This document shows, in pieces, positions 12,022-63,830 of a stretch of DNA of 64,000 nt. The notes beneath the pieces are model-generated. The model was not told the origin of the DNA, made no database searches, and was given only the letters and a program-made list of their open reading frames with translations. The stretch is from Vairimorpha necatrix (Eukaryota). Made by a program: the position numbers and the translations under genes. Location: positions 434,001-498,000 of the forward strand of contig CP142734.1 of NCBI GenBank assembly GCA_036630325.1, read 5' to 3'. How positions within the stretch are numbered: the first letter of the stretch is position 1; each line of letters opens with the position of its first letter.

Positions 12022-15000
12022 TGTTGATAATTTTAAATATTTTATATGTAACCCCTAATTTTTATGGAGAATAACAATAAACATATTAACATGGTGGAGA
12101 ATGAGATAGAACCCATGAATACAGAGATTAGTAGAGATAACATTATAAATGAGATACGAAGGTTTGAGTTAATGTCCTTTTTTAAGAATATGGAGGACGA
12201 GAGAAAGATTGAGTGGATTATGAGTAGAGCCAGTTACGATTTAATCGACTGGCACTACGAGATTATTGTGGGTCATAAAAAAATGACCTTTGTGAAATGG
12301 AGACAGTTGGCTTTAGAAGCATTCGGAAATAAAACATTGTCTTTAGCAAAACTGTACCGAATGAAGCAGGACAAAGATGAAAGCATTAAACGATATATCA
12401 TGAATGTAAAGTCTTCTTCACGGATATTTAAACTTAAAGAAGAAGAAGTAATTGAAATTATTACAGGTGGGATAAGAGATGAACTTGGAAGAGTAAAAAA
12501 TTTTTTGGAAATTAGTGGATCTTTGGATGAAAAAATTATTGATAAGTTGACAATCATAGAAGAAGAATGTTTAGAAGAAAATAAGAGAAAACAAGAAATG
12601 CAAGATTTACTGAAGAAACTTGAAAGTTTAAAAATCGAAACTACTAAACAAACCATTAAATGTTACAACTGTCAAAAATTAGGACATATTGCAAGAAACT
12701 GTCGTATGGGAACCAATTATAATCAACAGGGAAGTAAGAAAGTGAATGAAATAAGCACCGAATTATCAGACATTATTAAAAATAAAGAAAATTCAGTTTA
12801 TTTTTATGGACAACAGGTTCCTGTTACTTTTAACAATGGATCAACTTATAACTTTATCAGTAACGCGGTAGCTGCAAAGTTTAATCTACCATTTCAATGG
12901 AATTCTAAAGAAATGGTATTTAAGACCTGCCTTGAAGAGCTTTTTATAGTAAACAAACATACATTTATTGAATTGACGTATAAAGACCAAGTTTATCGTT
13001 TAAAATTTTTTATTTTACCCAAAGTGAGACTTGAAAAAATATTGATCGGGAAAAATGGGATGAGGGAGATGATGGAAACAGAAGATGAAGGATATGTGTG
13101 TGAAATCAAAACGGAACCAGGCAAAAAGTAGTAGAACCGTATATACATTGTCAAAGAACATGGAAGAAGGCGTTACAATGGCAATTCAGAAGCCTTTAAG
13201 CAAGGGATTAATTTAGGAGCCTAAGTCTACATGGCTTAATAATCTTCGGCCGGTAATAAAACCAGATGGTTTTATTCAAGTGACTACAAATTTAGTTGCG
13301 TTAAATAAAATAGTTGAACTTGGCAGGTATTCCATCCCCAGAATAGATGAGATTTTATGTAATTTGAGTGGAAGAAATTTTTCTCAAAGTTGGATCTAGA
13401 AGATGGGTTTTTTCAAATTAAGTTGGTTGAAAGAGATAGATTCAAGACAGCTTTTAGATTCTAACATAGACTGTATGAATGGAAGGTGATGTCACAAGGA
13501 TTCAAAAATCCACCTGCAATATAGAGGTTCATGGATTTTGCACTTAAAGAAGAAATAGGAAGGAGCTGTTTCTGTTATATAGATGATATTTTAATTTTTG
13601 GCAGAGATGAAAAAGATTATGATGAGGCATACAAAAGAATTAAAGAAGCTTTGGATAGAAACAAGCTTAAAATAAATGAAGACAAATCTAGTTTTAGACA
13701 GCGTGAAATCGACTTTTTAGGACATCATATAGAAGAAAATAGGATACTCCCATTAGTTGATAAGTTACAAGGAATAGAAGATTTAAAATCACCAAAGGAT
13801 AAGCAACAGCTACAGGAATTTTTAGGAACAATTAACTACTATAGAAGATTTATTAAAGACTGCTCCGGTATATGTAGTCCACTGTATGAATTATTAAAAG
13901 ACAAGAAACAGTTCATTTGGACAGAGGAAGAAGAGAAACTTTTTAGGAAGATCAAAGAGATTCTCAAAATGAACACAGGATTATTCCAGCCAGATTATAC
14001 TAAAGATTTTATTTTGACAACGGACGCTTCTAAGTATGGAATCGCGGCAGTACTTAGTCAAATTATTGATAAAAAGGAGATACCCATTGCGTTTGCTTCT
14101 AGGAAACAAAAAGACCATGAAATTAATTATGGTATTAGTGAAAAAGAGTGTTTGGCTATGTTATGGGGCATGGAAAATTTTAATTACTTTTTATATGGAG
14201 CGAACTTTGAGGTAATAACAGATCATAAAGCATTAGAAGTGCTTAATAAAGGTGAAATTAACTCCCCGAGAATTCAAAGATGGTTAGATAGAATGTCTAG
14301 ATATTGCTTTAAAGTTACGTACAGGCAGGGCAAAGACATACCTCACGTAGATTGTTTAAGCAGAAATTTTGATTTCGTTGAAAATGAGGAAATAAAGGAT
14401 GATAATAAACAAATAGAGGAAGACAAAGAAGACAGGAAGAATATTGAAAATAAAAATAACGAAGAAGAAGAAATTGAATTCAAGAAGATTAGGGTCGAAG
14501 AAAAAGAAATTGTGCGAGCTATTCATTTAGAACTATTACATAGAGTAAAACAATCATTAGAGTATGAAATTAGAAAAAGAGGACTCAAAATTAAAAATGT
14601 AGAAAAGCTAGTTAAAGAAGTAGTAAATGAATGTGAAATATGTTGTCAATACAATCCAAAAAAGAAAAAAAAGTTTATTTTTGTTACGGCATTCGAAAGA
14701 GGAGAAAAGGTTGCGGTGGATATAATAGGCCCAATAGGAAAGCAATATATTATATCAGCAATTGATTATTTTACTAGAGAAGGTTTTGCAAAAGTTCTTA
14801 GTTCAAGAAACGATGAAAAGGTAGTAAGTTTTATAGAAGATGTCAACGAAAAGGTCAAGATAAAAACACTTATATTAGATCAGTCAAAAGAAAATTTAAG
14901 TTCAAAGGTCGTCAACTTTTGTAAGCATCATAATATTGAGTTACATTATACATCTCCCTACCATCACCAATCCAATGGTAGAGTAGAGAGATTTAATAGG

Positions 15001-15485
15001 ACACTACAAGATCTAATATTTAAGAATAAGGAAGACAGTTTTTTAAAAACGAAGTTAAAAAGAGCTATAGAGATTTACAACAACACGTTTCATACTGGAA
15101 TCTTAATGACACCCCAAGAAGCAACCTTGTTAAATGTACAAGACAAACTAAGACAGATTCAAATGGAAAATATAATAAAATACAATAAAAAGAATGGAAA
15201 AGGTGAGCAAGAACATTTTTTTAGACCAGGGGAGGTTGTGCTAATCAGACAAGAAGGAAATAGAGGAAAAGGTAGCCCTAAGTTTAAGGTTCGAGGATGT
15301 GTTTATAAAGCTTTAAAAAATAATGCGTTTATAATCAAGATAGGAAAAAAGAAAATAAAAAGACACGCTTCTCAGTTAAAGCTTTTAGTTGATGAGCCAA
15401 TTTTGTAGAGGGGGATGTTGATAATTTTAAATATTTTATATGTAACCCCTAATTTTTATGGAGAATAACAATAAACATATTAACA
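12022..15485 (+). mobile_element. Ty3/Gypsy LTR retrotransposon B with identical 70-bp LTRs and disrupted gag-pol
   Basis: LTRs 12022-12091 and 15416-15485. TSD CAGAT at 12017-12021 and 15486-15490. PBS TGGTGGAGAATG (tRNA-Ala-type 3' end CATTCTCCACCA). PPT AGAGGGGGA. Confidence 0.95.
12064..15408 (+). pseudogene. gag-pol of element B, broken in the RT N-terminal region (13131-13530)
   Basis: CYNCQKLGHIARNC; protease site mutated (TFNNGSTYNFI); YIDD; TDASKYGIAA; VDIIGP; NGRVERFNRTL. Stops and frameshifts lie between the two ORFs. Confidence 0.9.
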
Positions 15486-16363: not shown

Positions 16364-17504
16364 GGTACATGACCGTTTGGAACCCGCTTTGGGAAAATGA
16401 ACCCGCATTGAAAAATTCAAAAAAAGGGAAAAATAAAAAAAATTATAAAAAAAGAGACTTAACAATTTATTTTGAATAATGAAAGAAGTCGATCAATTCT
16501 TTGGTTTTTTGGTATTTGATAAGACCATAGAAACTGTAAAAGATACTCATAGTGCTCGTCCTAATTTATTCCATGTCTAGACCGAATCTCTCTTCGAAAA
16601 GATCAAAATCCTTCAATTTGTTGAGTATGTGTCTCGGGATCGTTAGGATTTACGAAATTGATAGAGTGATTGACAGTCCTATGCTCCATCCCTGTGATTT
16701 GTCTAAATGCAGCACCATATGCTTTCCATTGATCAGTGATCACAATAGAACCAGGCAATACATTATCTTGTATTACCTCAAGAAGCGTAGCAGTATTTCT
16801 ACTAGCTACAGGGACGAGAAAGGCCTTTCTAGAACCTCTTTCAACTCCTCCTACATACCACTGACCTGTGGTATGATTGCCACGATTATATTTGGCACGA
16901 AAGAATAGACTCTCATCGATCTCCACTACTTTAGGAATGCCGAACTCATCACGACCTCCTAACCTCTGACTATTATTGGTCACTTCCTCGATTATGCGAT
17001 CTCTGCAGAGCATACCATATGTACTTACGGTTTTTCTGTCTAGCTCAAGATCATTTGCTATATCGAGAAAGGAAACTCTTTTGATATACTTATATATCAT
17101 TTTTATAATTTTATAAAAACTTAATTTGGTATTTTCAAAAATAGAGTCCTTTTTGACAGATTTAGAAGTCGTACAAGGTTTTGTGCAATTCCAAACATAT
17201 TTATCTAATAATCTTATTCTTCTAATCAATTTCATTGGTCTTTCAGAGCTGCATACAGTACAAAAAAAGTTGTTTTTTATTAATGAACTCCGTGCCAGAA
17301 AGATACACGCTGTCTCAGCATCATAAAATGTTTCCAAAATAAAATTTATATTTATTTCCATGTTTAAAAACATTTCATCACTAAAAGGCTCATCTTCTTC
17401 AACAAAATTTGTTTTTGTCAATCTTGCCATTTTTGAAAGGGGGGTCCTTTAATTTTTTAATGCGGGTTCATTTTCCCAAAGCGGGTTCCAAACGGCCATG
17501 TACC
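16364..17504 (-). mobile_element. Merlin (IS1016/IS1595-related) DNA transposon 1
   Basis: ~54-bp TIRs starting GGTACATG (16364-16417 and 17451-17504, 2 mismatches). 8-bp TSD CTTTTATA/CTTTTAAA. Confidence 0.93.
16460..17430 (-). pseudogene. Merlin DDE transposase with premature stops near the C-terminus
   Basis: VVEIDESLF, GGVERGS, ITDQWKAY, TVNHSINFVNP, HTQQIEGF*S (TGA at a conserved Trp). The frame continues with one more stop to ~16460. Confidence 0.9.
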
Positions 17505-29930: not shown

Positions 29931-32229
29931 ATAATATTTGTAAATATTAAAAAAAAATATTATTATAGTTTAGTTGACAAATAAAAAGTGAAACGTTTAT
30001 ATTATGAGCATAATTTGTTAGTACATCACAAATATAAAACAAATAAGCTTTGAAATTATGATATTCGTTTTAAAAGTATAATTGCATAGTCTGAAAAGTT
30101 ACAAAAGCAGTAATTTGGTGCAAAAAAAACTTTATATATAAAAACGTGTAGGTACATATTTAACCAATAAGAATAAAAAATTCAATACATGTTTAAAACT
30201 GTTTTGCAAAACCTAAGTTATTTTTACAGGCTGTTATATTAGTATGTTTAAATTTTTATGATTTTAAAGTACTGCATTGATCAAGTACATCTTAAATTTG
30301 TATTATAATTTCTACTGCAATAATGTTTAGCAACCATTTTTTTATAAATGCCTGTGAAACTATAAAATACCTATAGCAAAAAAATAATCATTATTAATAC
30401 ATAAACTTAAAAAACCTTTTCTTTTGATGTATTAATAAAATTTGTGTTCAACGAAATCTACATATTTATCTTTTTTCAAAAAAGACTAAATGCGCATATT
30501 TCCAACATCTATGTAGAAATGTTTTTTTTATAAAATTTTGCAATTTCGATGTAAATTTTATAAATACAAAAAGGCCTGTGTTAAGTCTATATCAATTATT
30601 TTTTATTCATAAGAAGCCTTGTTTTTGTTTCGATTTAAGAATTTTAATTTTTTGTTTAGGTATACTTTTTATATCATTATTACAAGGAGATTACAACTGC
30701 ACCAAAACAAAAAAATATAGCTGTAATGAATTTTTATCTTGTCCAAATATTAAGAAAATGATTATAAAAAAATAAACAAAATACGTTATGATAATAAAAA
30801 TTTTTTTTAAAAGAAATTTATAAAAAAACCATAAATTAAAATTTTAAAAATTAATTTCTTGTTCATTATGACTCCATTCGTCATTTTTATTATTCATAAT
30901 CAGCAGTTTACTCACGCCCCATTTCCCTACAATTGAACATTTACGCAGAAAACTTTTTAAATTACTTAATAGTTAAAACCCCAAATTTAAAATCTAATTT
31001 TAATTTACTAATTTTAAGCGGTACAATTTGTCATATCATCTTAAGTAACACATAAGACACCAATGTAGAAATAATTCTTCGAACAAACACAGTAAATAAT
31101 GTAGAATATACCTTTTATTTGTCTTTTATGGTTTGAGGTTTTAAGTGTTAAAAGTTTTAAAATTTATGTATTTAGTTTTCAAGGGTTTTTTATCCTTAAT
31201 TGATAAATTTTTTTGTTAAGTTGGGTTTATGATTTCTACTTCATTTCTAAAATAACATAAAAGCATGCATGATTAAATTGTGTAGTAACGCATGGTTATC
31301 ATGTTTTATTGCTTTGTAATTAATAGTTAAGAAGTATAGCGTATTTTTTATTCGTTTTTGAAAATGCATAATGACACACTTAGACACATAAATCATCAAC
31401 CCGAATGAGCAGAGATATATAATTTTATATTTGATGTTTTTTGGATAAAGCTTATAATGAATCACGCAAAAAAATAAATAATACATTTAAACTTTTAATT
31501 TTAGTTGTGCAATTTAATTTAAGTATGCGAGATACCTATCAAAAGTATAGAAATTAATGGATTAGATCTTATATCTAGAATAAACGGTAAACGAAACATA
31601 TATAATTATTTTGCAAGTAGGAGTTAGATAGCCCCCTACATTGGAACTAGGAAAACTTGCGTGGGATCCATATCAAACCATGGTGTATATAATTTTATTA
31701 ATTCCTCCAATAAAACAAGCCTTTATTAGCGAGCTAAGCTATTTCATAGGCGATGGATCATGGAGTGTATTTTTCAATCTATACCCCAAATCATGCCCTG
31801 TAGGTTTCACTTTAAATATACAAGACGTGCATGCTTTTAATATCCAACAAAAAATTGTAATATCTCAAAAAAAAAATATACAATTACCAGTATTGTCTAC
31901 GCGGCTAGCTACATCGTTACATACACATAGCGTTTTAATATCTATGTAGACCACTAATCTTCCACAAGTTTATGTCCATTTAACATAATCTTATAGGATA
32001 GTGTTTACGAGTAGTTCTATTGCTCTACTTGGTCTGGGATTAAGTTAGATCTGGATCTTGTATAGCCTCTAACTTAACTGTACCAAAGAGAAATGTATTC
32101 GATCGATAAGCCATTAACTTAGGGTATTATTTATGTCTTTAATATGTGTTTCATTACTATAAGTTAATTCCATTATAAATTACGTGCACAGGGTGAATTA
32201 ACTGCATAATTATTGTATATATTTATAAA

Positions 32230-33300
32230 ATTTGAGGTGTCTAACTTTAGTGTATAAAATTGGTTCTTCAGATACCTCAGAAATTGATCCCGCCAGGCTC
32301 AATATAAGCTACGCATAATTCAGTGGGCTTTTGGCATTTTTTAACAGAAATATTTAGTCGAAAAGAGTTCGAGAAGATCATAAAAAGAATTTGATCTGTT
32401 AGAAAAACAATGCAGGAACTCAAGAGGCGCATACTCAATCAGATGTCTATTATAGCATACTTTGAATAGCTATTATTAATATACTGATGCTTGTTTGTAA
32501 TGATACGGTATCTCTTTAACAGCTAAAACAGTATAAATAAAATAATTGGACTTTTTTTGTGCTAATAGTAATAGTGCTCGGATTAAAAAAACACTATTGA
32601 ACAAAAATTTAGAATATGAATAGAAAAATCAACATTAGAAACATTTTTAGATCTATAAAACCAGGAAAAAAATCAGATTTTAGGTTTTTGGTACATATAT
32701 TTAAAACAAGATCCATGAAAGCCTGGTGGAATATAAGGTCATTGTTGTTACAAAAATAAAATTTTACTTTATATTAATAAAGCCGAAGTCAAAGCTAATT
32801 GAACGGAAGCAACAACGGATATTGGAAAGTAAAGATGTTTAAAAAGTAAGCAGATTTTTGTTCTTTATCATGACCTCTCTGGCAATGGATGAAAATAATT
32901 ATATGTAAAATCAGTGAAAAATATTGATGGGATAAAGGACTTGAATTTTTTAAGGCAATATAGTGAATTGCTCGATTTGCCAATAAAATCTCTAATTAAT
33001 GAGGAAGAAAAAATTACAAATAAGTCTTACCAATAAATTGCTTTTAAGAGGTATATTCACTGCGATAATTAGTAAAAGTTATATTCTTTTCAAGAATTTT
33101 TATGTGACAATTTATATACAAAGAGCGAACGTTGGCCGAGTAAAATAAGGACATGGATTTGTTTTATTTTTACACCCGAAAATAAGAATGCTTATATTTT
33201 AATGCCTAAAAAATATTTATGAGACAATAAATAAAAGTTTTAAACAAAACAATAAGGATTTGACAAAGGTAGAGTTAAATGGAACTACGAGTCATATTAT
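32230..33300 (+). mobile_element. Highly degenerate Gypsy pol remnant (RNase H-integrase)
   Basis: Scattered motifs in the expected order: YTDA (~32480), YKPGK (~32655), DKGLEF (~32931). No open frame and no LTRs found. Confidence 0.45.
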
Positions 33301-38182: not shown

Positions 38183-41100
38183 GGGGGAATGAAGAGAATT
38201 AGTTTATATACAATAAGTTATGAGAACAATTGTCATTTATGTACTGCAATAAAGTGTTGTTATGATAAAAAAAGGTAGATTTTTCTCAAGTTATAAATCA
38301 TGTAATTATATTAACAATAAATTAATAAACAAACAATTAAAAATATAGACATAATTTTCACGGGTATTCGTCATAAATTTAATATCACAAAACCATAATA
38401 ACAACGGATACAGATAAACTAGGTATATATTATATATGTAAAAATATAATACTATATCTTTATTTTGTTTTCATGTGAATCTGATGTCTACAAACGTTCT
38501 ACAGTTGTTTTTTTGTAACTTCTATTATACTTACAATATCTTACTGATCATTTAACCCGATCTCATACAAGAAAGCTGATACTATCATACATTAATTGTA
38601 ATTTGTGTTTATGTTAAATCTAAAATAAGAGAAAACCAAGGATATTTAATCAATTGAATTGTAGTCACTTTTTACAATTACACTAAAAAACATGCTGAGG
38701 TTTTAAACACTATCCACGCTTTGACAAACAGTCATTGCAAAATTATAAGAATACATATGTGTTTTTATATACAGTCTTGAGAGAGGTATGTTTATAATAT
38801 AACGTATATAATGATTTAAATGAATCATACTGTCCCCATTTTTTTGCGACGTTTACAATATTACTCCACGTTGATCTAAGACAAATACATAATTACAAAA
38901 TTATACCCTTCCCCTTCGTCAATAAATCAAATGTTTAAATTTATATATTGTCAAATCTGCCAATTTGTTTGCTTCTGATCATGGAGGCCATCTGATCGTT
39001 GCAATCATTTTTTATTTCAATATATAAAAATATAAAAACATTTTAATTGCATATTGTCGTGATTTTTCTATAGATTAGAAACTTATTTATAACAGATGAC
39101 GTTGTTTAATTTTTTGCTACAATCATACTCAATCTTCTCTCTTTCATTCCAAAAGCCAATCAAGATGATCTGGTAAGTCTTTTTTAGAGTCGAGATTAGA
39201 TGTAATTAATTATTCGTACAGTAATATAAGTTTTTCTTTAAATCTATAATAAAACGAGATATTTACAGCATATAATTAAATGTAATAAATACCAAATACA
39301 TAGCTTAAGAAATTTGCAAAATCCAAAAATATACAATATATTGCAATCCATTTAATATAATGCAATCTGTAATATAACATGTCAGTTATTAAGAAAAAAA
39401 TACAGTTTATTGGTCTTATTTTATAGTGCTGTGGAGAGTTTTATTAATCTTAATACTATGTTTATTTGTCTTTTTAAGTTTTATATCAAGATATATTATA
39501 TTAAAAGATTGAATTACATTTCAAATTTAATTGAGTATACATATCAGTTTACATAATTACATCTTTTTTATTCATATTTAACGCAGAAGTTTGGATTAAT
39601 GTAATTTTATAAGCATAATTAGAAATAGACAAATAAAGCAATACAAAAAAAATATAAAATCAGTTGACATATGTAATTTTGATTTGCTTGGGTTTTTTTT
39701 AGCCCCATAAACATTTTATATTTTTTATTATCAAAACTAAATACAATAGAAACAAATATTATACATCTTCGCAATTTCAAAGATCATGATAGAAAAATGA
39801 TGTATTCGAAGAGGACAATAATGCTCAAGAGGTAAATATATTTTCGTAGCTCAAAGAATACAAATAAATAGAAAGCGAGAAAGGCAATTTAAATATACAA
39901 TTTAGGAAAAAAAAGTAATTATGAATTTTTTCAAAAATTACAAACGGCATCTAAAATGATTTATTATGTCGCATTTCTTTTCAATTTGTATTTAATATAA
40001 AATCATCTAGGGCGATAAATTTAAGACTATTGATAGGAGATTAAATAAATATTTGCATATAACTAATACTGAAGTATTTTGCCATGAAAATAAAAATCAA
40101 AGTAAAATTTTAAATGACGTTATATATATAACTACTATATAGCATTTCTAGAGATCTGTTGCACAAATGTAAACGATTAAAAAGAAGACTTGCTTTAAAT
40201 AATTCCTATTTGTACATCATAAAACATATGAAAGCTTTAATGGAAGTGCTATTTTGTCATCCCAGGTTTTAGATTGTTTTAGAATGTCTTGTTTTTCCTT
40301 ATATTCCAATACGTGGCAATTAACGATTTTGAATGTAAAAAACTGTATACAAACATACATAAGACGTTTTTATGTTTTATTTTGCCTAAAATTTTAATAT
40401 TTAAACGTGCCAATTTGACATTGTCTTTTGATTTGTTGTGTTTATTTTAATAATAATTCATTGAAATTTACGTCCATTATCGTTAAAATTATTTTGCTTT
40501 CTTGTATTTTATTTTTTATTTGAATATTTTTAAAATTTCGTGATGAAATAATGCGTATCTATCATTACCGTAAAAATTTTTTTAAAGAATATAACGTCGC
40601 ATCATGAATTTTTATTTATATATATATATATTTGTTCTTCTATAAGCACATTTTCAAGGTTTTCAACTAAAAATTTTGTTTTTTTTTTAGTAGATAAAAA
40701 TAATCTAGATTTGTTTTCTTCATAAAAAAACTACTTTGTGCATACTTTAATCTGGTGATTTTTAAAGTGTATTTTATTTCGTATGTTACTATTATAAAAA
40801 CATATTCATGTTTGGGCGAACACTATGATTTTTTACCAGTTTATACAAAACTTTGGGTTTTTTTTCTTATCTTGATTTATTAAGTGAAAATTCATGAAAA
40901 TTAACTAAATCATAATGCTCATTGTAAATTAAATTTGTTTTTATTTTCTAATTTCAAAGCTTCCTTATAAACTATAATTTCGTAGTAAGAGTCGAGCGAG
41001 ATATAATAAATTATCTACGGTATAATAAGTTTGTTTATGGAACCTTTTTGCGTCTAACTAAAGTGTTAAGCATCTAATTTAGAATTTCTCCATAAGGATG

Positions 41101-44100
41101 CTACAATATTGTTGTGGTAAATAACGATACGTGAAGTAATCGTTTCAGACAATTTGGTTCAAGTCCATGAAGGGTACAATTTAATAAGACGCTATAAGCT
41201 AATAAATGAACAAGCCCTTGTATACCAAAAGACTATCTTGTGAGAACCATTTTAAGGATTCTGTAATAATATGGTCATAACTATAGACAGGCTAGTAATC
41301 AATGCGGTCCAAAAATACTGAAATTATGTAGTGGTATAAGGAAACGTTTAAAAACTCCAGATAATAGCAACGACATTTGTTTTAGTACGATGATTTCTTT
41401 TGTAAGTGATTCAAAAATGTCAATTTGATATACGCCTTTGCAGTAAGGTGGATGCTATTTGAGGCATTGATGATACAGTTTTTTTTAAAAAACTAAATTC
41501 TATTTAGTATCCGAAGTTGCTGCAATGGTAATTTGAGGGGGAAAATTAGTGAGAAATGACAGTCATAGTTCTACAAAGATCAAACACGAATCATCATGGT
41601 GTATATATAGAATTTTATTTTTATCTACAAAAAAAATAATTAAACATTCAGATTTAAGTTTGTACAATTATTAATTTGATGTTCATGTCTTGTTTTTTTA
41701 TTATCTAATGACAAAAAATACTATAAATCTAATTATAGAAAAAAGTAATTACGAATATAAAAATAAACTACAGGTCGCAATATTTTATTTCGAAGTTTTC
41801 CCAGCTAAAATTAGATTATTGCTTTATTAAATCTAACGAGGATAGGCATTTATCATATAGGCTTAGACGTTTTTATTTAATCAATAACAAATGCATTTTC
41901 CTTGCATTTAAAAATGTGATTTGTGAACTCTTCATAGAAAAGACTTAAAAATATTTTCTATTTGAGATAATATTTATTTATTAATACATTTTAATGCTTT
42001 TATTATGTTTCTTTGTACGATAAGAACTTGTGGATTGTTTCATTGAAATTTTTGATTGTAAGACAATATAAGTGTTCCTTGATCCAAATTATTTTCTTAT
42101 TTCTATCTATATTCCTTGTATAAAAATAAATTTATCCTGCTTTTTATTCTTTTTTTTATATTTTTGCATTCTTAAAACTGTTTGTTATATCATAATTTCA
42201 ATTAAAGTATAGATTAGAATGGTTAAAACGAATTTTCATTGTATTTGCACATAACGTGCTACAACAATATTATATACATATTTAATTTTTATAATCATTC
42301 TTCAAAATATAGTTAGATGCTTTTTAGGATTTTTTCTTTTTAAAAAATTTGCAAAACGTTTTATCATTTAAATGAAGATACAGTCGAATGCAATAATTTA
42401 AACTGTACTTTTTAAAACGAAAATAATTCTTTGAATATTGCCATTTTGAATCATTTTTATTTGACATGTTTGTTGAAAAATGTATTAGGCTTAAACATTT
42501 TTTGAATTAGTAATTTTAAGCATACGGGAGAACCGTTTTTTAGACATGATTTATAAATTTTGCTTTTATATAGATGGCGGTATGTTACCTAATAAAAAAA
42601 AGTTTATTTATTTTTGTCAACCTCCAATCGTATTTTGTTTTCTAAAACCAATTTTTAAAGTGGGTCTTCACTGTAAACAATAAATATAGACATATTGAAC
42701 AAAAAAAATCTAATTGCCTATACTACCTTTCTCTTTTTTGCATTTATACTTTGAGAAATTAAATAATCAAATATTTAAGGATTAATTTAGTATTTTTAAT
42801 CCCAAAAGATTACAAAAACCAAAATTATAGAATTTGCTATTTTAAATATTTAAGTTATATCTTTACATATTTATGTACCTTTTAAAAACAATTTAATTGT
42901 TTTTATTTTATTTTAAAAGCTATTTTAAAAAAAAATTTTTTCTTTTAAAATATTTTTTCCCATGATAAAAAATAAAAAAATTAGCGATGACTTATAAATC
43001 TATAATATGTGTTTTTAAACATGAAATTTATTGATTATTAATTTTTTAAAGTTTCTTCTCTTACTGAAAAAAAATTACTCATCTATATCCGTTATTTACA
43101 AATATGATATCTAAATACGATTTTTCACACACTAAGAAATATGCAAATCTAAAAAATTAAATAGCTCAAATTTAATTTTCAGTCTTAAATTAAGCAATGT
43201 AAAAATCTTTTACATGATTTTTCAATTTTAAAAAAAATACAAATTAGTTTAAAATGTGTGTTAATAGAATAAATCTGTTTAAACCCCATTTTTTATCTTA
43301 ATATTTATTAGTATTGATAGATAGAAGCGTATTAACAACAACTTAAGATGAATAATAAATTCAAACGATAAAAAAATAAGCTCATGATACTTAATGCCAA
43401 TATATAACAGTGGATAAACAAAGAACAACGTTGAAATTATAAAAAAACCATAACATTTTTAAATTCCGTGATCAAGTGGCTACATAACATCTTTATGAGG
43501 AATTTCTTGTGAGGAGAAAAATTTAAGTGATATAGACCATATAAAACTTTAAGTGATAGTATAGAAGTTAAATAAGGGAAACCACTGTTCAATATGACAC
43601 TACACGAAAGCATCCACATATTAAATTACTTATAAAACTTCTAGAAAATTCTCCATATAGTTTTTATGTAATTTTTGAAGTTTTCTTATTATTGCCAGAT
43701 CTGTTTGGGTTGTTATAGTCAATAAATGGGTTTACGAATTGTTTTTAGTAATCTCAATTCGAAACACACTTTATTAGAGTTTTTTGATAAGCAATTCTAT
43801 TTTATACAATAGAGTATTATATCTTGGTTTTTTTTGTTTTAATCATACGAGAATAGTATTTTATAGCTCAAAATATTCTATAATCTTCTTAATATAGTCA
43901 TACTATATTTTTTATCATTATTTTTACATTATAGAAGCTAATATTATTGAGGAATAAAAAAAATTAGTTAAATAATAAAAAGCATCCTAAATGAAAAACA
44001 TGAAAATAAACAAGTATTTTTCTAAAATTATAAATAATAATTAATGCCCGAGAGACTTAATTTTCTGTTAGGCAAAGGCAAATATCATACCGGACTCGAG

Positions 44101-44269
44101 GTAGTTTTTTTTTAACATTTACAATATATGTCATTATCATAATAGCTCTAGTTTGATAATGAAAATGTATTTTAAGTGTCGTAAGTATTCTGCAAGGTAG
44201 ATAGAACGCCCATTTCTTAATTTTAAGAAAACGCGATACGAAGAATTAGTAGTATATATATTTTTCTTT

Positions 44270-45039
44270 TTTTTTTTCTTGCAAGTAAGGGGTAGAAATA
44301 AACCTTACATAGGGACCAGGGGGATTTGGGTGTGATCCTCATCCAACTGGTACTGTGAGATTCTTACTCACTAAAACTCCCTCCATACAACTTGCCGGTG
44401 GAGCAAGCTCCGCCGTATCCATTGGACTTTGGCTCCAGGAGAACATTTTCCATTTATACCTCAAATCGCGTCCAGAGTGAACTCAAAGCGTATATATTTA
44501 ACGGGCATGGCTATCTATACCCCGAGGAAAAATATCATCGTACTGACTCAAAGGTCCCTACAATCATCTGCATTGCACACACGGCTCCTTACACGACCAC
44601 ATCCCCAGCCCGGCTTTTTTTATTGGGCTGCGTTGACCACCAGTCTCCCACTAGTTTCGGCCACCGTGTTACAGAATCTTGTAGGATAGGGCCCTACTTC
44701 GTCTAGTCTCTTAGTTAGCTCTAGGATCCCACTCTAGAGTGCACCAGCCATGGGCTCCAACTAGGCCGTACCCATTAGATACTTTTATGTATCATTAAGT
44801 CACCAAAGAGTGATACTGTTTTTTGGCCTTGAGGTGCGTTTCTACACTAGATGCTAATTCCCCTGTGGCTGGACACACACAAGTTTCATTGAATCAACTT
44901 AATGATTATCGTGGACATTTTCATCATCTGAGTTGTTCCAACTGCATCATAGAAAGTAGAAACAATTTTGGTGCCCCTGGGAATCGAACCCAGCCATTGC
45001 TCAATGGAAGCATAGCATTCGCTTGTGCTAAGGGCACCT
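44270..45039 (-). mobile_element. tRNA-derived SINE-like retroposon, ~770 bp
   Basis: tRNA-like head at 45038-44969 with A-box-like TAGCACAAGCG and B box GGTTCGATTCC. GC-richer non-coding body and A-rich tail. 15-bp TSD TATATATTTTTCTTT at 44255-44269 and 45040-45054. Confidence 0.85.
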
Positions 45040-45633
45040 TATATATTTTTCTTTGTATATAGGATTTTTTTGTAAAAAATTTATGAACATTACAAGGTAT
45101 GATCTGTGTATTAAAACTTTAAAAATTTTGCTATAAATTATAAAAAATGAAAAATGGAATAGATGATGCAGTAATTGTCGAATATAAAAACAATGCAAAA
45201 AACTGTCAATTGATATAATAATTATGTATCGTACAATGCACACCAATAAAACAAAATATTTAGCTTTCATTGATTAAATTAAGAGCAATACATAATTTTT
45301 TGGCTAGAAAAGGAGGTTCTGAAAATAATAAGTAATGATTTTAAACTTTAAATGCGAGAGAATGCATAAATAAATTTTCCGCTTAGCGCATTACAGAAAT
45401 CAATAGTATTAATGTTATCTTAGAGCGCGCCTGCAAAAAAAATAAGAATTCTGTTAGATGCCTTTGAAACAGTAAAAATCTATCAGAACCATCAGCTATT
45501 CAGCTAGAGCTATCAAAAAAATGTCCTGCGAAGTTTTATATAATTCAATATTATTTAAATGCAATTGGAATATTTGCTAAATTACAATGTGTCTATACTT
45601 CTTACCTATAAATAGGAACAATATCACTAGTGT

Positions 45634-46776
45634 GGTCCTATCAGGAAAATCGACCCACAAAAAAAACATAAATTGAGTATCCAAACATTTTTCTAGAAGT
45701 AAAGCAAAATCATGGGGAATTGAATATTTTTTTTTATATTGGCAATGTCTTTTACGCCAAAAAATTCTTTCAAAAATTTAGAGATAGATTATAGTTTAAC
45801 TCACTTCTTTTTCTATAATCGTGGTCTAAGTTGGACCAGAAATTTTCAATCTGGTTTGTATGACCACCCTCTCCATTAACAAATCCCTTACTATGATTTA
45901 CTAATTCATGTACTGATCCAAAATTAGCCACAGCTTTAGGATATGATGAATATCCATCAGAAACAATAATAGTTCCTGGGAGTATATATTTTTTAAACTT
46001 TTCTAATAGAGTTTCATGTTTTCTATTAGGAACTAATGAAACAAAAAAATTCGTTCCATCACCTTCTATAGCTCCTCCAAGTATCCATTGTATACTTTAA
46101 GTATCGTCTTGTATAGACGATGGATTATCAATCACCAGACCATTGCATATGGCCGTTATATCAATTTGAATACGTGTATTTCCTCCACCTATCTTTTCAA
46201 TTCTAGAAGGAGTCTCACTTATAAAATCTATTAATACATTTTTAAATTCATTGTATGTGGACTCGGCCATCTGACCAAAATTAATAGCTTGATAATTGGT
46301 GTATGAAAAGACCCAACAATACAAGTACCTTAGAATCTTTTTAATTATATAACCAATTAAAAAAATTTGGTGCTTTTTTTTAAGGAGCACTTTCTTTTAC
46401 ATTTTTTACTTGGGCATTTGTACCCTTTCTTATCAATGAAAAAAGCTGTTTTAATTATTTTCATGTTTCTTACACAAGAATTAGATACACATGGCATAAC
46501 AGGTTTTGTTACACCCATTTCTAATCAAAGTGTAATTGCCATGTCATTATCTTGGAATATAAGATTCCAAGGATCAAGTTCTCCTACCTTTATTAAAATT
46601 CCTTCTACTAGCATAATGGGTAAGACAATGGAAAAAAATACTATAGCTTAGAAAATCGACCCCCAGAAAAAAAAATAGACAAAAGAGTAAAAAATCGAGA
46701 GATTTTTTGATTTTAAAGAAGTGATTATTTTTATATACTGTTTTAAGTAGAGGGGGTCAATTTTCCTAATAGCGCC
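45634..46776 (-). mobile_element. Merlin DNA transposon 2 (degenerate)
   Basis: ~23-bp imperfect TIRs (GGTCCTATCAGGAAAATCGACCC / GGCGCTATTAGGAAAATTGACCC). 8-bp TSD-like ACTAGTGT/ACTAATGC. Transposase fragments KIGGGNTRIQID, WILGGAIE, SDGYSSY, HTNQIENFWS. Confidence 0.85.
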
Positions 46777-48442: not shown

Positions 48443-51400
48443 TGTTAAATAAAGTTTCTCCTTCCTTTTCATAATATTTTTAGATGGGTAAAATATTTAT
48501 TTATTATTTATAGTAAATATTTTACAGTAGATACTTTGGGTAAGTATCTACTGTAAAATATTTACAGGATAATCTCTGTAACTAGATTATCATCCTGTAA
48601 CATACTCCCTTTCTTTAAACTCTCCCAATCCGTGGGATCCGAGTTCTCAATTAGTTGTAAGTCTTTTTCATTATACCGAAATAGTTTTCCATACATGTCC
48701 TCAATCTCAAAACCACCAGAGTCAAACTTTCTTCTTACCAGATAAGGTCCTGTCCATTTATCATCAAGCTTATTCAGTTTTTCAAATGGTTCCTTTTTCT
48801 TCATAACCGCATCTCCTACTTTAATATTTTTGCCTTTAACTCTATCATTCGTGCGTTGTATGTCTCTATTTCTATCTTCTATCACCTTTTCGTGTAACTT
48901 TTTCCGTAACAACTCAATCTTCTTAAGTGTATCATTTTCTTCTATAAATACTGCTCCACCATCTTCTTTCTCCGTAGTTATATCCTTAGGCTCTCTCCCA
49001 TATAACAATCTAAAAGGACTACTCTTGAATTTTATTAGTGGTGTTATCCTATATGCGTATAGCGCGATTGGTAGGAACATATCCCACTCTGACCATCTTC
49101 CATTGCATATCTTAGCCAACCTTGCAATAAGTGTACGGTTTAGTCTCTCCGTTTGTCCATTACATCTTGGATGGTAGGCGCTTGTAAACGACTTCCTAGT
49201 ATTTATCATTAAACACAATTTTTTTTATGATTTTATTGTTAAACTCAAGTCCTTGATCAGTCAAAATTACTTCCGGAGGTCCATGTCTCAATAAAAATTC
49301 TTCATAAATAAATTTCGCTACAGATTCCGCATCTTTTCTTTTTAAAGCTCTCACTTCTGCCCATTTAGTTAGGTAGTCTGTTCCTACCAGAATAAATTTA
49401 TTTCCACCGTCTGTTGTGGGTAACGACCAACTATATCCAACCCAATCATATTGAACGGACTTTTTATTTCCACACGTCTAATTTTATTTTGCAACGTCTT
49501 GTCTCTAAATCTTCTACAAGTTTCACAGTTACGAATGTATTCAACTACTCTGTTTCTTATATTTGGTACACTCGCAATATTTCTGATGTACATTATAGTA
49601 GAATCTATACCTCCATGGCCAAGCTCTAAGTGCTCTCTGTATCAGTTTTAATATTGTTTCATTGTCTTCTTCAACATTTATTCTTTCTTCATTTTTAACC
49701 ACTGTTTGACACTTTCTTAATTGGCAATTTTCTAATACACCACGTGAAAGTACATCAGCCAAAACGTTATTTGAACCTTTTATATGTTCGATTTCATATT
49801 TATAGTTTTGCAGTTTCATTATCTATCTTGCCAATCTCCCTATAGGTGTTTTCTGTTTCATTAACCATATTAATGAACTATGATCTGTCCTGATGATAAA
49901 ATTGTTAGACAAATATACTTTAAGTTTTTCAATAGACCATACAATAGCTAAACACTCTTTCTCAGTTGTAGTGTAATTAATTTCGGCGCTATTTAGCGTT
50001 CTACTTATCCACGTTATAGGCATTTCTTTTCCCGTATCTGTAAATTGTGTAAGTACTCCCGCAATTCCAATGTCCGAGGCATCAGTATACAAATAAAATG
50101 TCTTATTCATATCTGGTAAAAGTAAAGGTTTGGCATTTAATATTTCTTGTTTCAGGAGCTCTAAAGCATTTTCTTCTTCGTCTCCAAATATAAAGTTACC
50201 TTTCTTTAACCTTTTTAATAACGGCATAGCCTTCATGGTATATGATGGTATAAATCGTTTAAAATATACTATAAATCCTAAAAGTTTTCTTAAGTCGCTG
50301 ACGTTCTTTGGATTTTCTAGGGTGTTAACCTTATCCAATTGGTCCGATTTAATTTTAAGTTCTCCATTCTCTACAGTGTGTCCTAAAAAATCAATTTTAC
50401 TCACTGCGAATGCACATTTTTTCATGTTAAGTCTGAGTCCAAATTTTGACAAAATTTCCAGGACTTCTCTCACATCGTCGACATGTTTGTCTTTCCCTCT
50501 TGAGAATATTAAAATATCATCAAGGTAAACAACTACTTTCCTCCAAAGTATATCTTTAAATATCCAATTCATAATCTTCTGAAACGTAAAAGGGGCATTG
50601 ACTAAGCCAAATGGCATCTTAGTCCATTCATATACACCTTGCTTTACAATAAATGCAGTTTTATGAATATCTCTTGGGTTCACTTCGATCTGATGGTAAC
50701 CCATCTCCAAATCTAAAGTGGAGTACATATTTTTCCCTTGAATAGCATCTATTGCTTTATCCATGTGGGGGATCGGGTATGGCGTACTGATTGTGTTTTC
50801 ATTCAACTTTCTATAGTCAATACACATTCTCATACCTCCGTCTTTTTTAGGTGCAAGCACTACGGGGGAAACATAATTACTCGTGCTCTCTCGTATTAAT
50901 CCATTCTGTAACATCTCATCTATTTTATTTTTAATTATGAGATTCTGTTGCGGATTTCTTCTATATGGTTTACAACATATAGTTTTACTTTGATCTTTAA
51001 GTTTAATATCATGTCTAAAAGGTAGAATTTTCTCCTTATTTCCGGATTCTTTCATATATTTATACAGTAAGCACCTAATATTTTTATTGACTTCTTCATG
51101 TTCACCAAACTTGCATTCTAATGCCTCTATTTCCATGGGTATTTCCTCGCTTATTACTGATTTTAAACTGTACTCTTCTGTTTCCAATTTAAGCCTTGTT
51201 CCATCATTAAAGATTTCAATTTCATTTTCTTCCCAATGAACTTTAATACCTAAATGTCTACTTGTTATACTACCGATGAGTATATTTTCATTAAGATCTT
51301 CCATTACCGCAAATTCTGTTTCGTAAGCGTGCATGTTATTTTTATCACGCAATACCGCTTTTAACATGCCTACCGAGCTATCCTTTCTAGTTGCTAAATT

Positions 51401-52511
51401 GACCGAAATTCTATTTTCTATATCTATTGGGATATTTAACATCTTCACCAGGTCGTAACTAATGTAATTAATGTCGGCTCCATAGTCTAGTAGTGCTAGT
51501 ACTTTTCCTCCGCCAATTTTCACCAAAAATCTAGGGACATTGGCTGCCTTGCTACTACATGTTAATGTCATCAGTTTCTTATCTGAACACTTCTTATAAT
51601 CATTTCTGCCACCAGTATTGGTTTGTATTATGCTCTTCGATTTATTCTTTGATAGTTCTGGACAATTACTTCTATAATGTTGACCTTTGCAATTGTAACA
51701 GCTAATAAATTTCTTTTGAAAACCACTTCTCACATCTTCCGATTTATTCTTGCTAATTTGCATCTTAGATTGTTCTTTACTCTCATTCTCAGAATCTATC
51801 TTAACTGCCAATTTCAAAACTGCCATCCAACTCTTACAATCCCTGTATCGATTTGCATTCCCAACTGGTATATTCATAACTACCGTATTAATAACATCTT
51901 TTAGTGGTATAGTAATGTTTTTGTGTATTGAGTAAATTTCTAACCATAATATCTCGTTGTTACATTCTCTCAACTTCTTATGTAGTAGTATATTCAACAA
52001 TTTACTGTTGCCAGAAACTTCTTCGGGGCTGAAGTATTCTAAGAACTGTTGTTCAAATTCAACTACACTTTCAAACACATTATATCTTGAGCCTTCAAAC
52101 CAGAGTCGAGCTTTTCCAGTGAGATTAGTTTCTACAAAACCAAAATATTCTTCTTCAGTCCAAGATTCTCTAAATGGTTTAAATTGTAGTAAGAACTCTT
52201 CTGCTTCCGTCCTTTTACCATCAAATTTTCTGAAGTTGTATGTACCCCTGATGTTGATTTTCATTGCAGCTAATTGTTTTTCTAGCATCTCTACTGTATT
52301 CCTAGTCGTTTGCTTCTCGACTGGTTCCATATCATCTTCGTTGTCGCCATTTGTTAAATAAAGTTTCTCCTTCCTTTTCATAATATTTTTAGATGGGTAA
52401 AATATTTATTTATTATTTATAGTAAATATTTTACAGTAGATACTTTGGGTAAGTATCTACAATAAAGTAATTACAGGATAATCTCAGTAACTAGATTATC
52501 ATCCTGTAACA
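48443..52511 (-). mobile_element. Ty3/Gypsy LTR retrotransposon C with 160-bp LTRs
   Basis: LTRs 48443-48602 and 52352-52511. TSD CACGG at 48438-48442 and 52512-52516. PBS TGGCGACAAC (tRNA-Ser-like end). Purine tract AAAGAAAGGGAG precedes the 3' LTR. Confidence 0.95.
48562..52381 (-). pseudogene. gag-pol of element C, with a stop after RNase H and frameshifts in integrase
   Basis: CYNCKGQHYRSNC; LLDYGA (altered protease site); YLDD; TDASDIGIAG; RLAR* (TAG at a conserved Trp); NGQTERLNRTL; WTGPY. Confidence 0.92.
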
Positions 52512-60005: not shown

Positions 60006-60554
60006 TTACCCAAGTTGTTTTTCTTTAATGAATTCTTGAATCTTTCTCATTGCTATTCCCCTATGACTTATTTTAGATTTAACTTCAGGCTTCAAATCGC
60101 CATATGCAATATCAGACCCATTAGGGAGGAAAATGCGATCAAACCCAACTTTGCCATTGTTTTCTCCTTCTATTAACTTCCCCTTTATACTTCCACTAAA
60201 AATTTCGAATATTCCTTGATTATAGTTTCCAAGTCCCAGAATACAACTTAAAACAGATTCTCTCCCAACTTTAGACACTAAATTTTCAATACAATCTAGT
60301 CCCATATTTAAAAAATCTTTCGCATATGGCCCGGGAAATCCGTTTAGAGCGTCAATATCAATACTTGTGTCATCGATCATTATCCATTTTTCGGGATGCA
60401 ACTGGCATACATTTTTGAGCTTATGGATGGCTATTTCTTCCTTAGTACCTTGTATTTCTGTTATTTCCATATTTAGTTGTTCAAAATGTAGATCAAATTG
60501 ATCTGAAACTTCAACAAATTTTCTGTTACTCGATGTTACAAAATAAATTATCAT
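60006..60554 (-). CDS. HAM1: Inosine triphosphate pyrophosphatase (HAM1/ITPase family)
   Basis: YFVTSSNRKF, EIQG, DDTS, LNGFPGPY, GFDRIF and KISHRG motifs. The likely start is ACCC-ATG at 60554, not 60572. Confidence 0.95.
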   Translation of the reverse strand: MIIYFVTSSNRKFVEVSDQFDLHFEQLNMEITEIQGTKEEIAIHKLKNVCQLHPEKWIMIDDTSIDIDALNGFPGPYAKDFLNMGLDCIENLVSKVGRESVLSCILGLGNYNQGIFEIFSGSIKGKLIEGENNGKVGFDRIFLPNGSDIAYGDLKPEVKSKISHRGIAMRKIQEFIKEKQLG

Positions 60555-61309
60555 GGGTTTAGAAATCAACATTTTAAATATTAAAAAAAAACAAAGAAAG
60601 AAAACTTATTGTCCATTAATACAAGTTTTTCTCTGATAAAACTTTGTCAATATTAATTAATTTTTTTTAATTAAATAAATTATAAAAATTCATATTTTTA
60701 GAAAAAAGAACTAATTACGATTTACATTAGTAAAAAACAATGCATTTTGAATATAATCCTTCGTCGATCATAAATTCAAATATCTTTTTGATTTTATGAA
60801 AGAAAATATTTTTAAAATAACATACAGCAATAAAGAGGTGAGTTACCATACTATTCCCTCTCAGGGGTGTGCCCTTTATTATTTAGACCCCAAAAAAGAA
60901 ATGCAAGTAAAAGAAGGAACAAAAAAGAAACAAATTTTACAAGAACTTATGATATTTAAAATAACAAAATACTCTATATTATTATACAAAAATTGATTTT
61001 AAATCAGTTTTTACTATAATATTAATTATTATGTATTTTTCTGACCATTTTCCTTATTAAGTTCTCTAACAGTTGGTGTACTATAAAAGGAGTTCTATTT
61101 AATAAATCTTCATCTATTAAAAACCAACTGAAAAAAAGGAATATAGTCAGACACAGAATATTTGTGGACATACCCTCTAATTTTCACAATTTTTGTAATA
61201 TAAAATATGTCGAATTAATTTAAAATATAGTTTATAATAGATCTTAATTTGATAAAAATTATATTTGATATACAAATATCTTTTTATTTGGTATTTTTAA
61301 TATTAAAGA

Positions 61310-62577: not shown

Positions 62578-63830
62578 CAGTTCATTTCAGTTTTATAGAC
62601 ACTTTGTTTTATTTTTATAGACACTTTGTTTCATTTTTATAGACACCTTGTTCCATTATTATAGACACCTTGTTTCATTTTTATAGAACCCTTGTTCTAA
62701 AATTTATTTTACTTGCCTTCAAAATTTTTAACCCTTAAAATATGAGAAGCCGAAATGTCAGAGAAGAACTTGAAGAGTACGTAAAGAAGAATCATTTGTC
62801 GAGATAGAAGATGAAACGCAGTTACCCCAAGAAAAACCAGGAAGATGATTACCAGGTCGAGTAACGAAAGTTTTCTTTCGTTACTCGACACTGGTATGAA
62901 ACTTATTGATATGGAAGTTGCTTTAAATCTCAATAAGTCTAGCGTAAAACGCCTATATAAAAGATATCTTACAGGAGAATTTACCAACCTTAAAACTTTT
63001 AAAACGGCAGGACAAAAAAAAGAGTGAATTTTTAAAAGATATTTCTATGGTTTCAAATATTATTGCAACAAAAATAGCCCTGAATCCTTGTCTAGGTCTT
63101 TAAAATTTATCCGATAAATTGCAAAATGCAAATTCCACGGGACATTACTCTGAGTCAACTGTTTGCAGACTTGTTAAAAAATTAGGGTATAGTTCTAAAA
63201 CCCCGACCTTGATTCCACTAAGTAGAAACAGTCCTCAGAACAAGCTGTTGAGGTCTCAATATGCGAGAGTAATATAAAACATATCGAATGATAATTTAAT
63301 ATTTCTCGATGAAACTGGTTTAAATCTGCACCTTAACAATACTTTTGGTTATTCTTTAAGAAATACTAAGTGTTGTGTAACGGTCCCGAATTCGAAAGGG
63401 ACTAATGTTTCTTTAATGTGTGCTATAAGCGTTAATGGATTATATGCGCATAAAACTAAAGTCAGAAGTTTTAAATCTGCAGATTTTGTCGAATTCATTA
63501 ACAATAATTTACCTATTTGTGAGCAAGAGGAAAACAGAATTTTAATATTGGATAACGCATCATACACAGAACATCCGAAGTAGCTGCTGCTCTTAGAAAC
63601 AAAAGATACAGTCTAAAACTTCTACCTCCATATTCTTTACAACTAAACCCCATCGAGAAGTTTTTTAACAGTTTCAAGTCCCGAGTAAAACAGAGACCTA
63701 GACCAACAACCACTCCTTTGTTAATTGATTGTATTGAAGACGTGTTGAACACAGAAGTATTCGTCATGATTGGTTTTTTTCTCATATGAGAGAATTTATC
63801 GAGAAAGCTCTAAGTCAATGGTGATTTTTT
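62578..63830 (+). mobile_element. Tc1/mariner (IS630-like) transposon with pseudogenised transposase; right end not seen
   Basis: TA|CAGT left end; motifs IFLDETGFNL, ILILDNA, LPPYSLQLNPIE; stops and frameshifts. Confidence 0.85.
62585..62694 (+). repeat. Five 22-bp subterminal tandem repeats of the Tc1-like element
   Basis: Units approximate TTTCATTTTTATAGACACCTTG, directly adjacent with no spacers. Confidence 0.9.

Follow-up and report, generated by a model that had tools for sequence, protein, structure and literature searches.

A long tRNA-headed SINE with a folded 3′ RNA tail in the microsporidian Vairimorpha necatrix

A short interspersed nuclear element (SINE) was analysed in a 64,000-nucleotide stretch of the Vairimorpha necatrix genome (assembly GCA_036630325.1, contig CP142734.1, positions 434,001 to 498,000 of the forward strand). 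The whole stretch is referred to as the window, and all positions are counted from its first letter. The element is a minus-strand retroposon at 44270-45038 with a length of about 760 bases (756-769). It is composed of a tRNA-derived head, a body rich in guanine and cytosine (GC) and a folded 3′ tail ending in poly(A), and it is enclosed by a 15-base target-site duplication (TSD). We consider it likely that the element belongs to a ~760-base tRNA-derived SINE family resident in the genome of this Nosema/Vairimorpha-clade microsporidian, where the family has repeatedly produced new insertions over a long period. An initial annotation of the same DNA had described a tRNA-headed SINE with an A tail and a 15-base TSD in a microsporidian; the head, the poly(A) and the TSD were all recovered where it had placed them, and the Ham1 protein encoded in the window was closest to Vairimorpha proteins. 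The parts of the element and its borders are as follows.

45040-45054, no strand: upstream copy of the TSD, sense AAAGAAAAATATATA
45039: extra A between the upstream TSD and the head
44969-45038, minus strand: tRNA-derived head, from the ARAGORN call, the fold and box B
44397-44968, minus strand: GC-rich body of ~570 bases, from its composition; negative in Rfam
44281-44395, minus strand: folded 3′ tail of ~115 bases, a four-way-junction RNA
44270-44280, minus strand: poly(A) tail, 8 A (44270-77), up to 11 when the As overlapping the TSD are counted
44255-44269, no strand: downstream copy of the TSD, sense AAAGAAAAATATATA, the same 15-base word

The significance of the duplication was evaluated against pairs of sites with the same spacing. 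A shared word of at least 15 bases was found in 0 of 20,000 random pairs from the window and in 2 of 8239 pairs from AT-rich sequence; since the control pairs almost never share 15 bases, the TSD is not a product of AT-richness. The flanks of the element were unique in the window, no convincing terminal inverted repeats were found around the insertion site, and a nested position within the neighbouring IS1595/Merlin-like transposon could not be demonstrated. Contigs of four public sequencing runs (X1-X4) were aligned to the window at a likeness of at least 80%, and an empty site was identified in run X1. Here, a 290-base contig (depth 5.18; 15 mismatches in 243) joins position 44238 to position 45043. 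The 18 letters at the join match 44239-44256 with small changes, and the 15-base target is present once in the contig, with a single substitution. Read as a whole, this contig is the exact empty site in a relative that is ~94% identical. The top strand before the insertion reads ...TATAC[AAAGAAAAATATATA]TACTAC...

The insertion can be described by a model in which the four-way-junction tail at the 3′ end, together with the poly(A), would be bound by the reverse transcriptase (RT) or ribonucleoprotein (RNP) of a partner long interspersed nuclear element (LINE). The LINE endonuclease would nick the T-rich bottom strand (...TTTTTCTTT/G), and reverse transcription would start from the T-rich 3′ end once it has annealed to the poly(A). 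A second nick, in the top strand and 15 bases away, would give rise to the duplication. Once inserted, copies lose GC and approach the AT-rich base composition of the genome. The features expected of such an insertion are present, namely the poly(A), a 15-base TSD at an A/T-rich site, an exact empty site in a relative and a 5′-truncated sister copy. The insertion pattern appears to match LINEs whose endonuclease is of the apurinic type and which use poly(A) for priming, and not the ribosomal DNA (rDNA)-specific R2.

Two old sister copies of the element were located in the window, both in a decayed state.

31597-32338, minus strand: copy 2, old and nearly full-length (nhmmer E = 5e-23, element positions 22-763)
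41008-41643, plus strand: copy 3, old and 5′-truncated (nhmmer E = 1.4e-15, element positions 139-734)

Copy 2 was 66.8% identical to the young copy over 683 columns and copy 3 was 65.7% identical over 586 columns, with GC contents of 0.334 and 0.310, respectively, against 0.462 in the young copy. Their local alignment scores of 113 and 93.5 can be compared with a control maximum of 18.5 among 174 segments. A plain blastn search of the window with the element returned a 75-base, 69% match alone, and nhmmer was needed to see the old copies; a profile built from all three copies detected no fourth copy in the window. Copy 2 has kept a decayed head with a canonical-type A box, and its 3′ end reads CCTACTTGCAAAA. 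Copy 3 lacks the first ~115-140 bases, starting near family position 113-139, and ends in the decayed tail TTAGTGAGAAATGAC; a 5′ truncation of this kind is a common outcome of the LINE machinery. The substitutions were strongly directional: G/C in the young copy faced A/T in the old copy at 127 sites (copy 2) and 116 sites (copy 3), and the opposite was seen at 42 and 32 sites. The step from 46% GC in the young copy to 31-33% in the old copies shows directly in which direction mutation is biased in this genome. Because two AT-decayed, ~66%-identical copies sit within 13 kb, the family was in the lineage long before the young insertion took place. The earlier description of the insertion as recent agrees with these observations, as this copy is the youngest of the three, and the element is not a single copy within the window.

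The head was called by ARAGORN as tRNA-Met(CAT) at 44969-45038 on the minus strand, which was the single call in the whole window, and the head also formed a cloverleaf when the complete element was folded. Its four arms (acceptor, D, T and anticodon) were in line with those reported in the initial annotation. The Rfam tRNA model gave no match to the head at E ≤ 5 with 1.1 kb searched or at E ≤ 10 with 64 kb searched. Its anticodon stem is interrupted by an A/A mismatch and its variable loop is only 3 bases long, which identifies the head as a tRNA derivative and not a tRNA gene. The possibility of a functional tRNA gene, which had been raised as a check on the SINE assignment, was therefore not borne out by the Rfam tRNA model, the mismatch or the short variable loop. 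In addition, 690 bases of repeat sequence follow the head without a gap.

Box B (GGTTCGATTCC, 44980-44990) has remained intact, with a full match to the RNA polymerase III (Pol III) consensus. The box-A region (45020-45031), on the other hand, is degenerate in the young copy. Extra letters were present at 45021-45023 in most of the depth of run X3 and in part of the depth of run X1, and a canonical A box was visible in one loose end of run X1 (45020) as well as, in decayed form, in copy 2. The extra letters, together with the canonical A box in run X1, indicate that the head of the young copy is a damaged version of the family head. A T5 run occurs on the sense strand of the body (44528-44532) and had been noted previously as a feature that could impair Pol III. 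Its presence was confirmed; the family majority, by comparison, has G at 44529 and 44531 inside it. Since two of the private changes of the young copy create the run, it is private to that copy and not a family-wide feature. A T4 run lies on the sense strand in the conserved tail. With its damaged A box and new T5 run, the young copy is probably not a source copy itself.

The GC content of the element is 46%, as against about 22-27% in its surroundings; per 200-base bin it ranged over 0.375-0.505 across 44200-44999 and over 0.18-0.27 in the flanks. The ~700-bp body had been characterised as GC-richer and structured. The first part of this description holds, and the second was weakly supported by the whole-element fold (z = -1.92), with 1 of 20 shuffles being equally stable. 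Rfam scans of the body, in both the gathering and the E-value modes, gave zero family matches, so that the check for a known non-coding RNA (ncRNA) gene also came back negative. The off-target Rfam matches at the element, namely Plastid-ycf2 (on the strand opposite the head) and Ms_IGR-7, were taken as chance, as were seven unrelated ones in the E-value scans. The longest open reading frame (ORF) on the sense strand has at most 64 amino acids, and a homologue search with a 115-amino-acid antisense ORF was empty. A 22-mer of the body (44927-44948) was searched in contigs of metagenomes, viruses and prokaryote genomes, with 0 matches. Of 7 features listed for a SINE, the element shows 5; it is non-coding on the sense strand, but with 756-769 bases it lies at or above the usual upper size, which makes size a borderline feature. 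An internal A7 run was observed on the sense strand of the body (44615-44621). The length of this linker varies among family members, and the alignments break there in all four runs. The A7 linker might be a sign that the long SINE arose as a composite of two parts.

Family members were abundant in the public sequencing runs, although the highest share of the sampled words of the element in any run was 0.42. Contigs confined to the element (about 44300-45030) numbered 255 in run X1 and 368 in run X3, and cover dropped at both element ends. Divergent contigs (<90% identity) numbered 102 and 91 in the two runs, respectively. In run X3, 85 of the 368 contigs were at least 99% identical, and internal-deletion variants were numerous. 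A bat-gut run (X2) and a root-metagenome run (X4) held element pieces that were 95-99% identical, and small shares of the element words were found in soil, bovine and freshwater runs. The summed depth in run X1 was 260-880 on the element and about 2-8 on the flanks, a ratio that is not a copy number. Among the 8 of the 255 contigs that were listed, seven had a depth of 3.0-6.5 each, similar to the 5.18 of the flank contig; by these 8 contigs, the depths in run X1 are consistent with about a hundred different copies in one and the same genome at low coverage. At no fewer than 14 positions, counted in 40 of 64 rows, at least 79% of the depth in both X1 and X3 differed from the window. Of these positions, 9 show A/T in the young copy against G/C in the family, 4 show the reverse, and one is a swap between G and C.

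A long-resident family that is mobilised by a resident LINE fits these observations better than a fresh transfer from the host. This reading is favoured because of the old copies, the equal per-contig depths in run X1 and the LINE families reported from Nosema species, with 4-15 families each in Table 1 of PMC4202319. A number of observations weigh against it. A GC content of 46% in a 27% GC genome is unexpected for a family of long residence, unless its source copies are constrained or the family is foreign. A length of ~760 bases is long for a SINE, and the T4 run of the tail or the T5 run of the young copy could stop Pol III. A scan of 34 ORFs of the window detected no RT or endonuclease ORF of a LINE. 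None of the contigs in the four aligned runs crosses a filled junction, which leaves the window assembly as the sole source for the filled site. The contigs of run X1 total 269 million letters, which is far above a microsporidian genome. In run X3, the summed depth on the element was 8000-183000, highest over the tail, with zero cover of the flanks, and pieces of the element were also seen in metagenome runs from bat gut, roots and other sources; such depth and spread would be compatible with a highly abundant family in a large genome, animal or plant. Four contigs at the loose end of run X1 (45020) agree in the 9 bases that precede the head, and these bases are fairly GC-rich. For some copies this may mean membership in a longer unit or an array, or a location in DNA that is GC-richer than the genome of the window.

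Several of these points would be accounted for if the young copy, or all three copies, were members of an arthropod-host SINE family that was transferred horizontally, either as RNP or cDNA through the host LINE machinery or by repeated transfer of DNA. The contrast in GC content, the flankless depth and near-identical contigs of run X3, the occurrence in gut, root and other runs and the size of run X1 all point in that direction. Transposon transfer between microsporidia and animals is reported in PMC4202319, in the portion available, and a SINE within a baculovirus is reported in PMC8010984 (section 11). We nevertheless consider such an import unlikely. It is opposed by the two ~66%-identical copies with their strong G/C-to-A/T decay, and a precise insertion with poly(A) and TSD needs reverse transcription in the parasite nucleus. 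The depths of the element contigs listed for run X1 equal that of the flank contig, which is microsporidian-like, and the lepidopteran SINEs of PMC8010984 differ in length and tail type. The acquisition from the arthropod host that the initial annotation had suggested is consequently weakened by the two old copies in the same 64 kb, but it is not overturned.

The copies could also be retrocopies, that is, processed pseudogenes of a cellular ncRNA gene with a tRNA-like 5′ end, and not a SINE at all. The unusual length, a tail that is a conserved folded RNA and a whole-element fold slightly better than that of the shuffles are compatible with such an origin, which we regard as very improbable. 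The body matches no Rfam family, no copy resembles a conserved source gene, and the head has a Pol III box B, with a canonical A box in the family. Three copies occur in 64 kb, and hundreds of distinct contigs with many internal-deletion variants were present in X1 and X3. Finally, an assembly artefact, or contaminating host reads joined to a parasite contig, is close to negligible as an explanation: the filled junctions are not crossed by an independent contig, but a chimeric join would not leave the element complete, with poly(A) at its end and exact 15-base TSD copies on both sides, the duplicated target is single in the empty-site contig of the relative, and two decayed copies lie in nearby AT-rich parasite sequence. 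Chimeric junctions had been named as grounds for rejecting the insertion, and the exact TSD and the empty site speak against them.

Following the analysis of the family, we examined the folded tail of the element, whose predicted parts are listed below.

44390-95 with 44281-86, minus strand: outer stem GCAAGU/ACUUGC
44376-83 with 44287-93, minus strand: P1
between P1 and P2, minus strand: UUUUAG linker
44355-71, minus strand: P2 hairpin GUGAG-UAAGAAU-CUCAC
44315-51, minus strand: P3 hairpin
44303-13, minus strand: P4 mini-hairpin CCU-AUGUA-AGG

The GTGAG/CTCAC hairpin that had been noted near the 3′ end was located at 44354-44376. Its assignment to an insect R1-type tail, as originally worded, found no support in the Rfam models and contig collections searched. 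The nearest Rfam model was that of the 3′ untranslated region (UTR) element of Drosophila R2 (R2_retro_el, RF00524), which matched the tail (44288-44393) below threshold with 14.9 bits (E = 2.2; gathering score 38) and gave no match in the whole-window scans. The motif is also present in long terminal repeat (LTR) retrotransposons from aquatic metagenomes. A 20-mer of the tail was found at 54 metagenome loci and at 0 loci in viral contigs. In 596 billion bases of prokaryote genomes it occurred twice, at about the chance rate, both times in metagenome-assembled genomes of Saprospiraceae (L055, L056). Ten of the 54 loci (L016, L018, L026, L028, L031, L035, L037, L041, L043, L044) form one marine sequence family, in which a CorA-like gene lies downstream of the 20-mer. 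The other parts of the junction are missing from this family and from the Saprospiraceae loci, and they were therefore regarded as unrelated or chance occurrences. The other 44 loci reduce to about 33 distinct sequences, with a GC content from 27% to 60% among the junction loci. An A follows the hairpin in 33 of 33 sequences, and a second box, YCU-loop-AGRUU, is present in 29 of 33.

The folds gave a common order of the junction: the closing helix P1, UU(UU)AG, P2, an A and two bases, a variable P3, P4, UU and the return strand of P1. Its two boxes can be written as UUAG-GUGAG-UAAGAAU-CUCAC-A and (A)UCU-loop-AGA(U)UU. Two circular permutations of the junction were observed. In the first, P1 is open and box 2 lies 40-72 bases downstream; this form comprises the SINE, whose tail carries the exact 20-mer with box 2 at +61, and 12 other distinct sequences. 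In the second, P3 is open, P1 is closed and box 2 lies 33-76 bases upstream; it makes up 16 of the 29 box-2 sequences, 13 of which were analysed. In the first form (13 type-D sequences), the cognate P1 strands gave a mean of -8.8 kcal/mol, as compared with -5.5 for swapped strands, and in the second form (13 type-U sequences) the cognate P3 strands gave a mean of -12.3 against -4.8; 0 of 2000 permutations reached the cognate value in either case. The closed parts had mean fold z values of -2.9 and -2.3 in the two forms. For the SINE tail itself, the cognate P1 duplex was -8.2 kcal/mol and the P3 fold had z = -3.1. In a MAFFT alignment, 92.3% of the cells pair, compared with 17-55% when the partners were slid. 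Changes on both sides of a pair were observed at 3 of 12 counted pairs, one of them being CCU/AGG of the SINE in place of UCU/AGA in P4. From these comparisons, the variable helices of the junction appear to be real. P2 is invariant because the loci were found by it, and RNAalifold recovered P2 alone from the MAFFT alignment because the variable helices were misaligned there. Two common family variants within the SINE tail (44340, 44388) fall at unpaired positions.

Several known RNA types were considered for the junction. A known ribozyme was ruled out, as no Rfam ribozyme family matched. Likeness to the Alu domain of the signal recognition particle RNA or to U5/U6, and mimicry of tRNA, were judged unlikely. 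A poly(A)-clamping triple helix of the ENE type (element for nuclear expression) was also judged unlikely, with U-rich strands that vary across the members.

The sequences around the metagenome loci identified many of the carriers as retroelements, and the junction was found 26-513 bases past the stop of long pol ORFs. The assigned loci were as follows.

Ty3/gypsy chromoviruses (RT_RNaseH, rve, Chromo): L001, L003, L005, L007, L012/L023, L040, L045, L047/L052, L050, L054
Integrase domains alone: L015
Ty1/copia (RVT_2): L006/L013, L046, L024/L029/L030, L034, L036; weak match at L051

Both permutations are present in both LTR superfamilies. On one contig the motif occurs twice (L001 and L002), 6.3 kb apart and within terminal repeats that are 95% identical; the motif is therefore part of the LTR, which puts it in the untranslated 3′ region of the element RNA. 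The tail most like that of the SINE was found at L017 (nhmmer E = 2.6e-4). Here, the motif lies at 106 in sense orientation, A24 follows directly, and an ORF with two CCHC knuckles extends from 187 to 933. From this layout, the locus may be a head-to-tail pair of non-LTR elements or may contain a gag gene, and it is a possible model for the type of the partner element. The R2 model in E-value mode matched L054 with 33.5 bits (E = 0.0012) and L017 with 29.1 bits (E = 0.013), and it matched none of the other 26 loci among the 28 that were scanned. At gathering scores, Rfam gave nothing on the window or on 20 loci.

The SINE tail and the R2 RNA element of the Drosophila 3′ UTR share the same order, with a closing helix, UUUUAG, a UAAG...AAUC hairpin, an A, a second hairpin, an (A)UCUU-loop-AAGAU mini-hairpin, UU(U) and the closing helix, and both are located at the extreme 3′ end of a retroelement RNA. 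The R2 element differs by a 32-base insert in its first hairpin, which is missing from the SINE tail. The SINE also lacks an R2 ORF and a 28S rDNA target, as no rRNA match and no R2-type ORF were found in the window, and whereas R2 is site-specific, the SINE has poly(A) and a 15-base TSD at an A/T-rich site. The likeness to R2 is thus a resemblance of architecture and not membership. The R2-derived short internally deleted elements (SIDEs) of Drosophila are non-autonomous elements that keep an R2-type 3′ UTR to borrow the RT. They are not known to carry a tRNA head and insert in 28S rDNA, and the window element differs from them in its Pol III-type head and its target. The small R2 3′ UTR core, as it is presented in the parts consulted of PMC13188248 and, for R2Bm, of PMC10499050, could not be mapped onto the junction.

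The most economical reading of the tail is that it would recruit the RT or RNP of a partner element. A wider proposal, which we advance tentatively and regard as rather doubtful, is that the tail represents one instance of an undescribed, circularly permutable RNA module near the 3′ RNA ends of unrelated classes of retroelements. The sharing across classes would then point to a common partner or to a self-cleaving RNA, and the element would be the first characterised microsporidian SINE family. The carriers of this module are the microsporidian SINE, the poly(A) retroposon L017 and the aquatic Ty3/gypsy and Ty1/copia elements, with a looser form in Drosophila R2. A conserved host factor, a zinc-knuckle protein of the Gag/ORF1 type and an RT are ideas for the partner; a catalytic RNA is another. 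If the proposal is true, one folded RNA module links a SINE, the R2 3′ UTR and both LTR superfamilies, which raises the testable question of what these elements recruit. The motif strings were absent from the literature searched, and no description of a motif shared across the element classes was found there, subscription journals and repeat databases being outside this scope. The motif was likewise absent from the searched supplement of PMC4202319, where line breaks could hide it.

Among known systems, tRNA-derived SINEs with a LINE-type tail are the closest to the element. The lepidopteran PxSE and HaSE families (PMC8010984) resemble it in the tRNA-like head with Pol III boxes and the non-coding body. 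Such SINEs also have in common with it the structured 3′ tail, a terminal repeat or A run, TSDs, and multiple copies, some of them 5′-truncated. The eel UnaSINE1/UnaL2-type elements with their "stringent" tails and the fungal SINEs are further comparators. The lepidopteran families have 252-389 bases and tails of simple repeats (PMC8010984, Table 1), in contrast to ~760 bases and a true poly(A) in the window element, which also differs from the tRNA-derived SINEs by its microsporidian host. No microsporidian SINE was described in the literature searched. A survey of microsporidian transposons covers LINEs, LTR elements and DNA transposons, with 0 occurrences of the word "SINE" in the searched portion of its text (PMC4202319). 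The portions seen of PMC11585130 and PMC13702014 contain generic RepeatMasker categories or zero counts, and the word does not occur in the accessible part of bioRxiv 10.1101/2025.05.12.652816. The element is novel by its unusual length, its poly(A) tail, its occurrence in a phylum without a described SINE and a tail module common to other classes of retroelements. Microsporidian genomes serve as models of genome reduction, and a long-active SINE that is polymorphic between close relatives implies a working pathway of Pol III transcription and LINE retroposition in these parasites. Its insertions can further be used as a marker for the history of strains and haplotypes.

The window surrounding the element has a GC content of 26.9% and is dominated by transposons. 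This agrees with the genome of V. necatrix, which infects Lepidoptera and whose genome was characterised as repeat-rich, tetraploid and 28.3% GC (PMC10759460). The sole cellular gene recognised in the window was Ham1/ITPase, at 60006-60572 on the minus strand, whose product was 60% identical to a V. necatrix protein, 54% to that of V. ceranae and 52% to that of V. bombi. From its base composition, its transposons and the Ham1 protein, the window was assigned to a microsporidian of the Nosema/Vairimorpha clade. The identity to the named V. necatrix protein is only 60%, and there may be two diverged paralogues on one chromosome. At least two regions with Ty3/gypsy pol genes (one of them fragmented), two IS1595/Merlin-like transposase fragments and one DDE_3 transposase fragment were identified. 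The transposon regions are listed below.

7277-15408: transposon region
48562-52405: transposon region, gypsy element
16603-17448: transposon region
45770-46396: transposon region
63278-63583: transposon region

The distance between the SINE and one of the IS1595/Merlin-like fragments is only 730 bases. An exact direct repeat of 58 bases (48443-48500 and 52352-52409) flanks the gypsy element at 48562-52405 and probably belongs to its terminal repeats.

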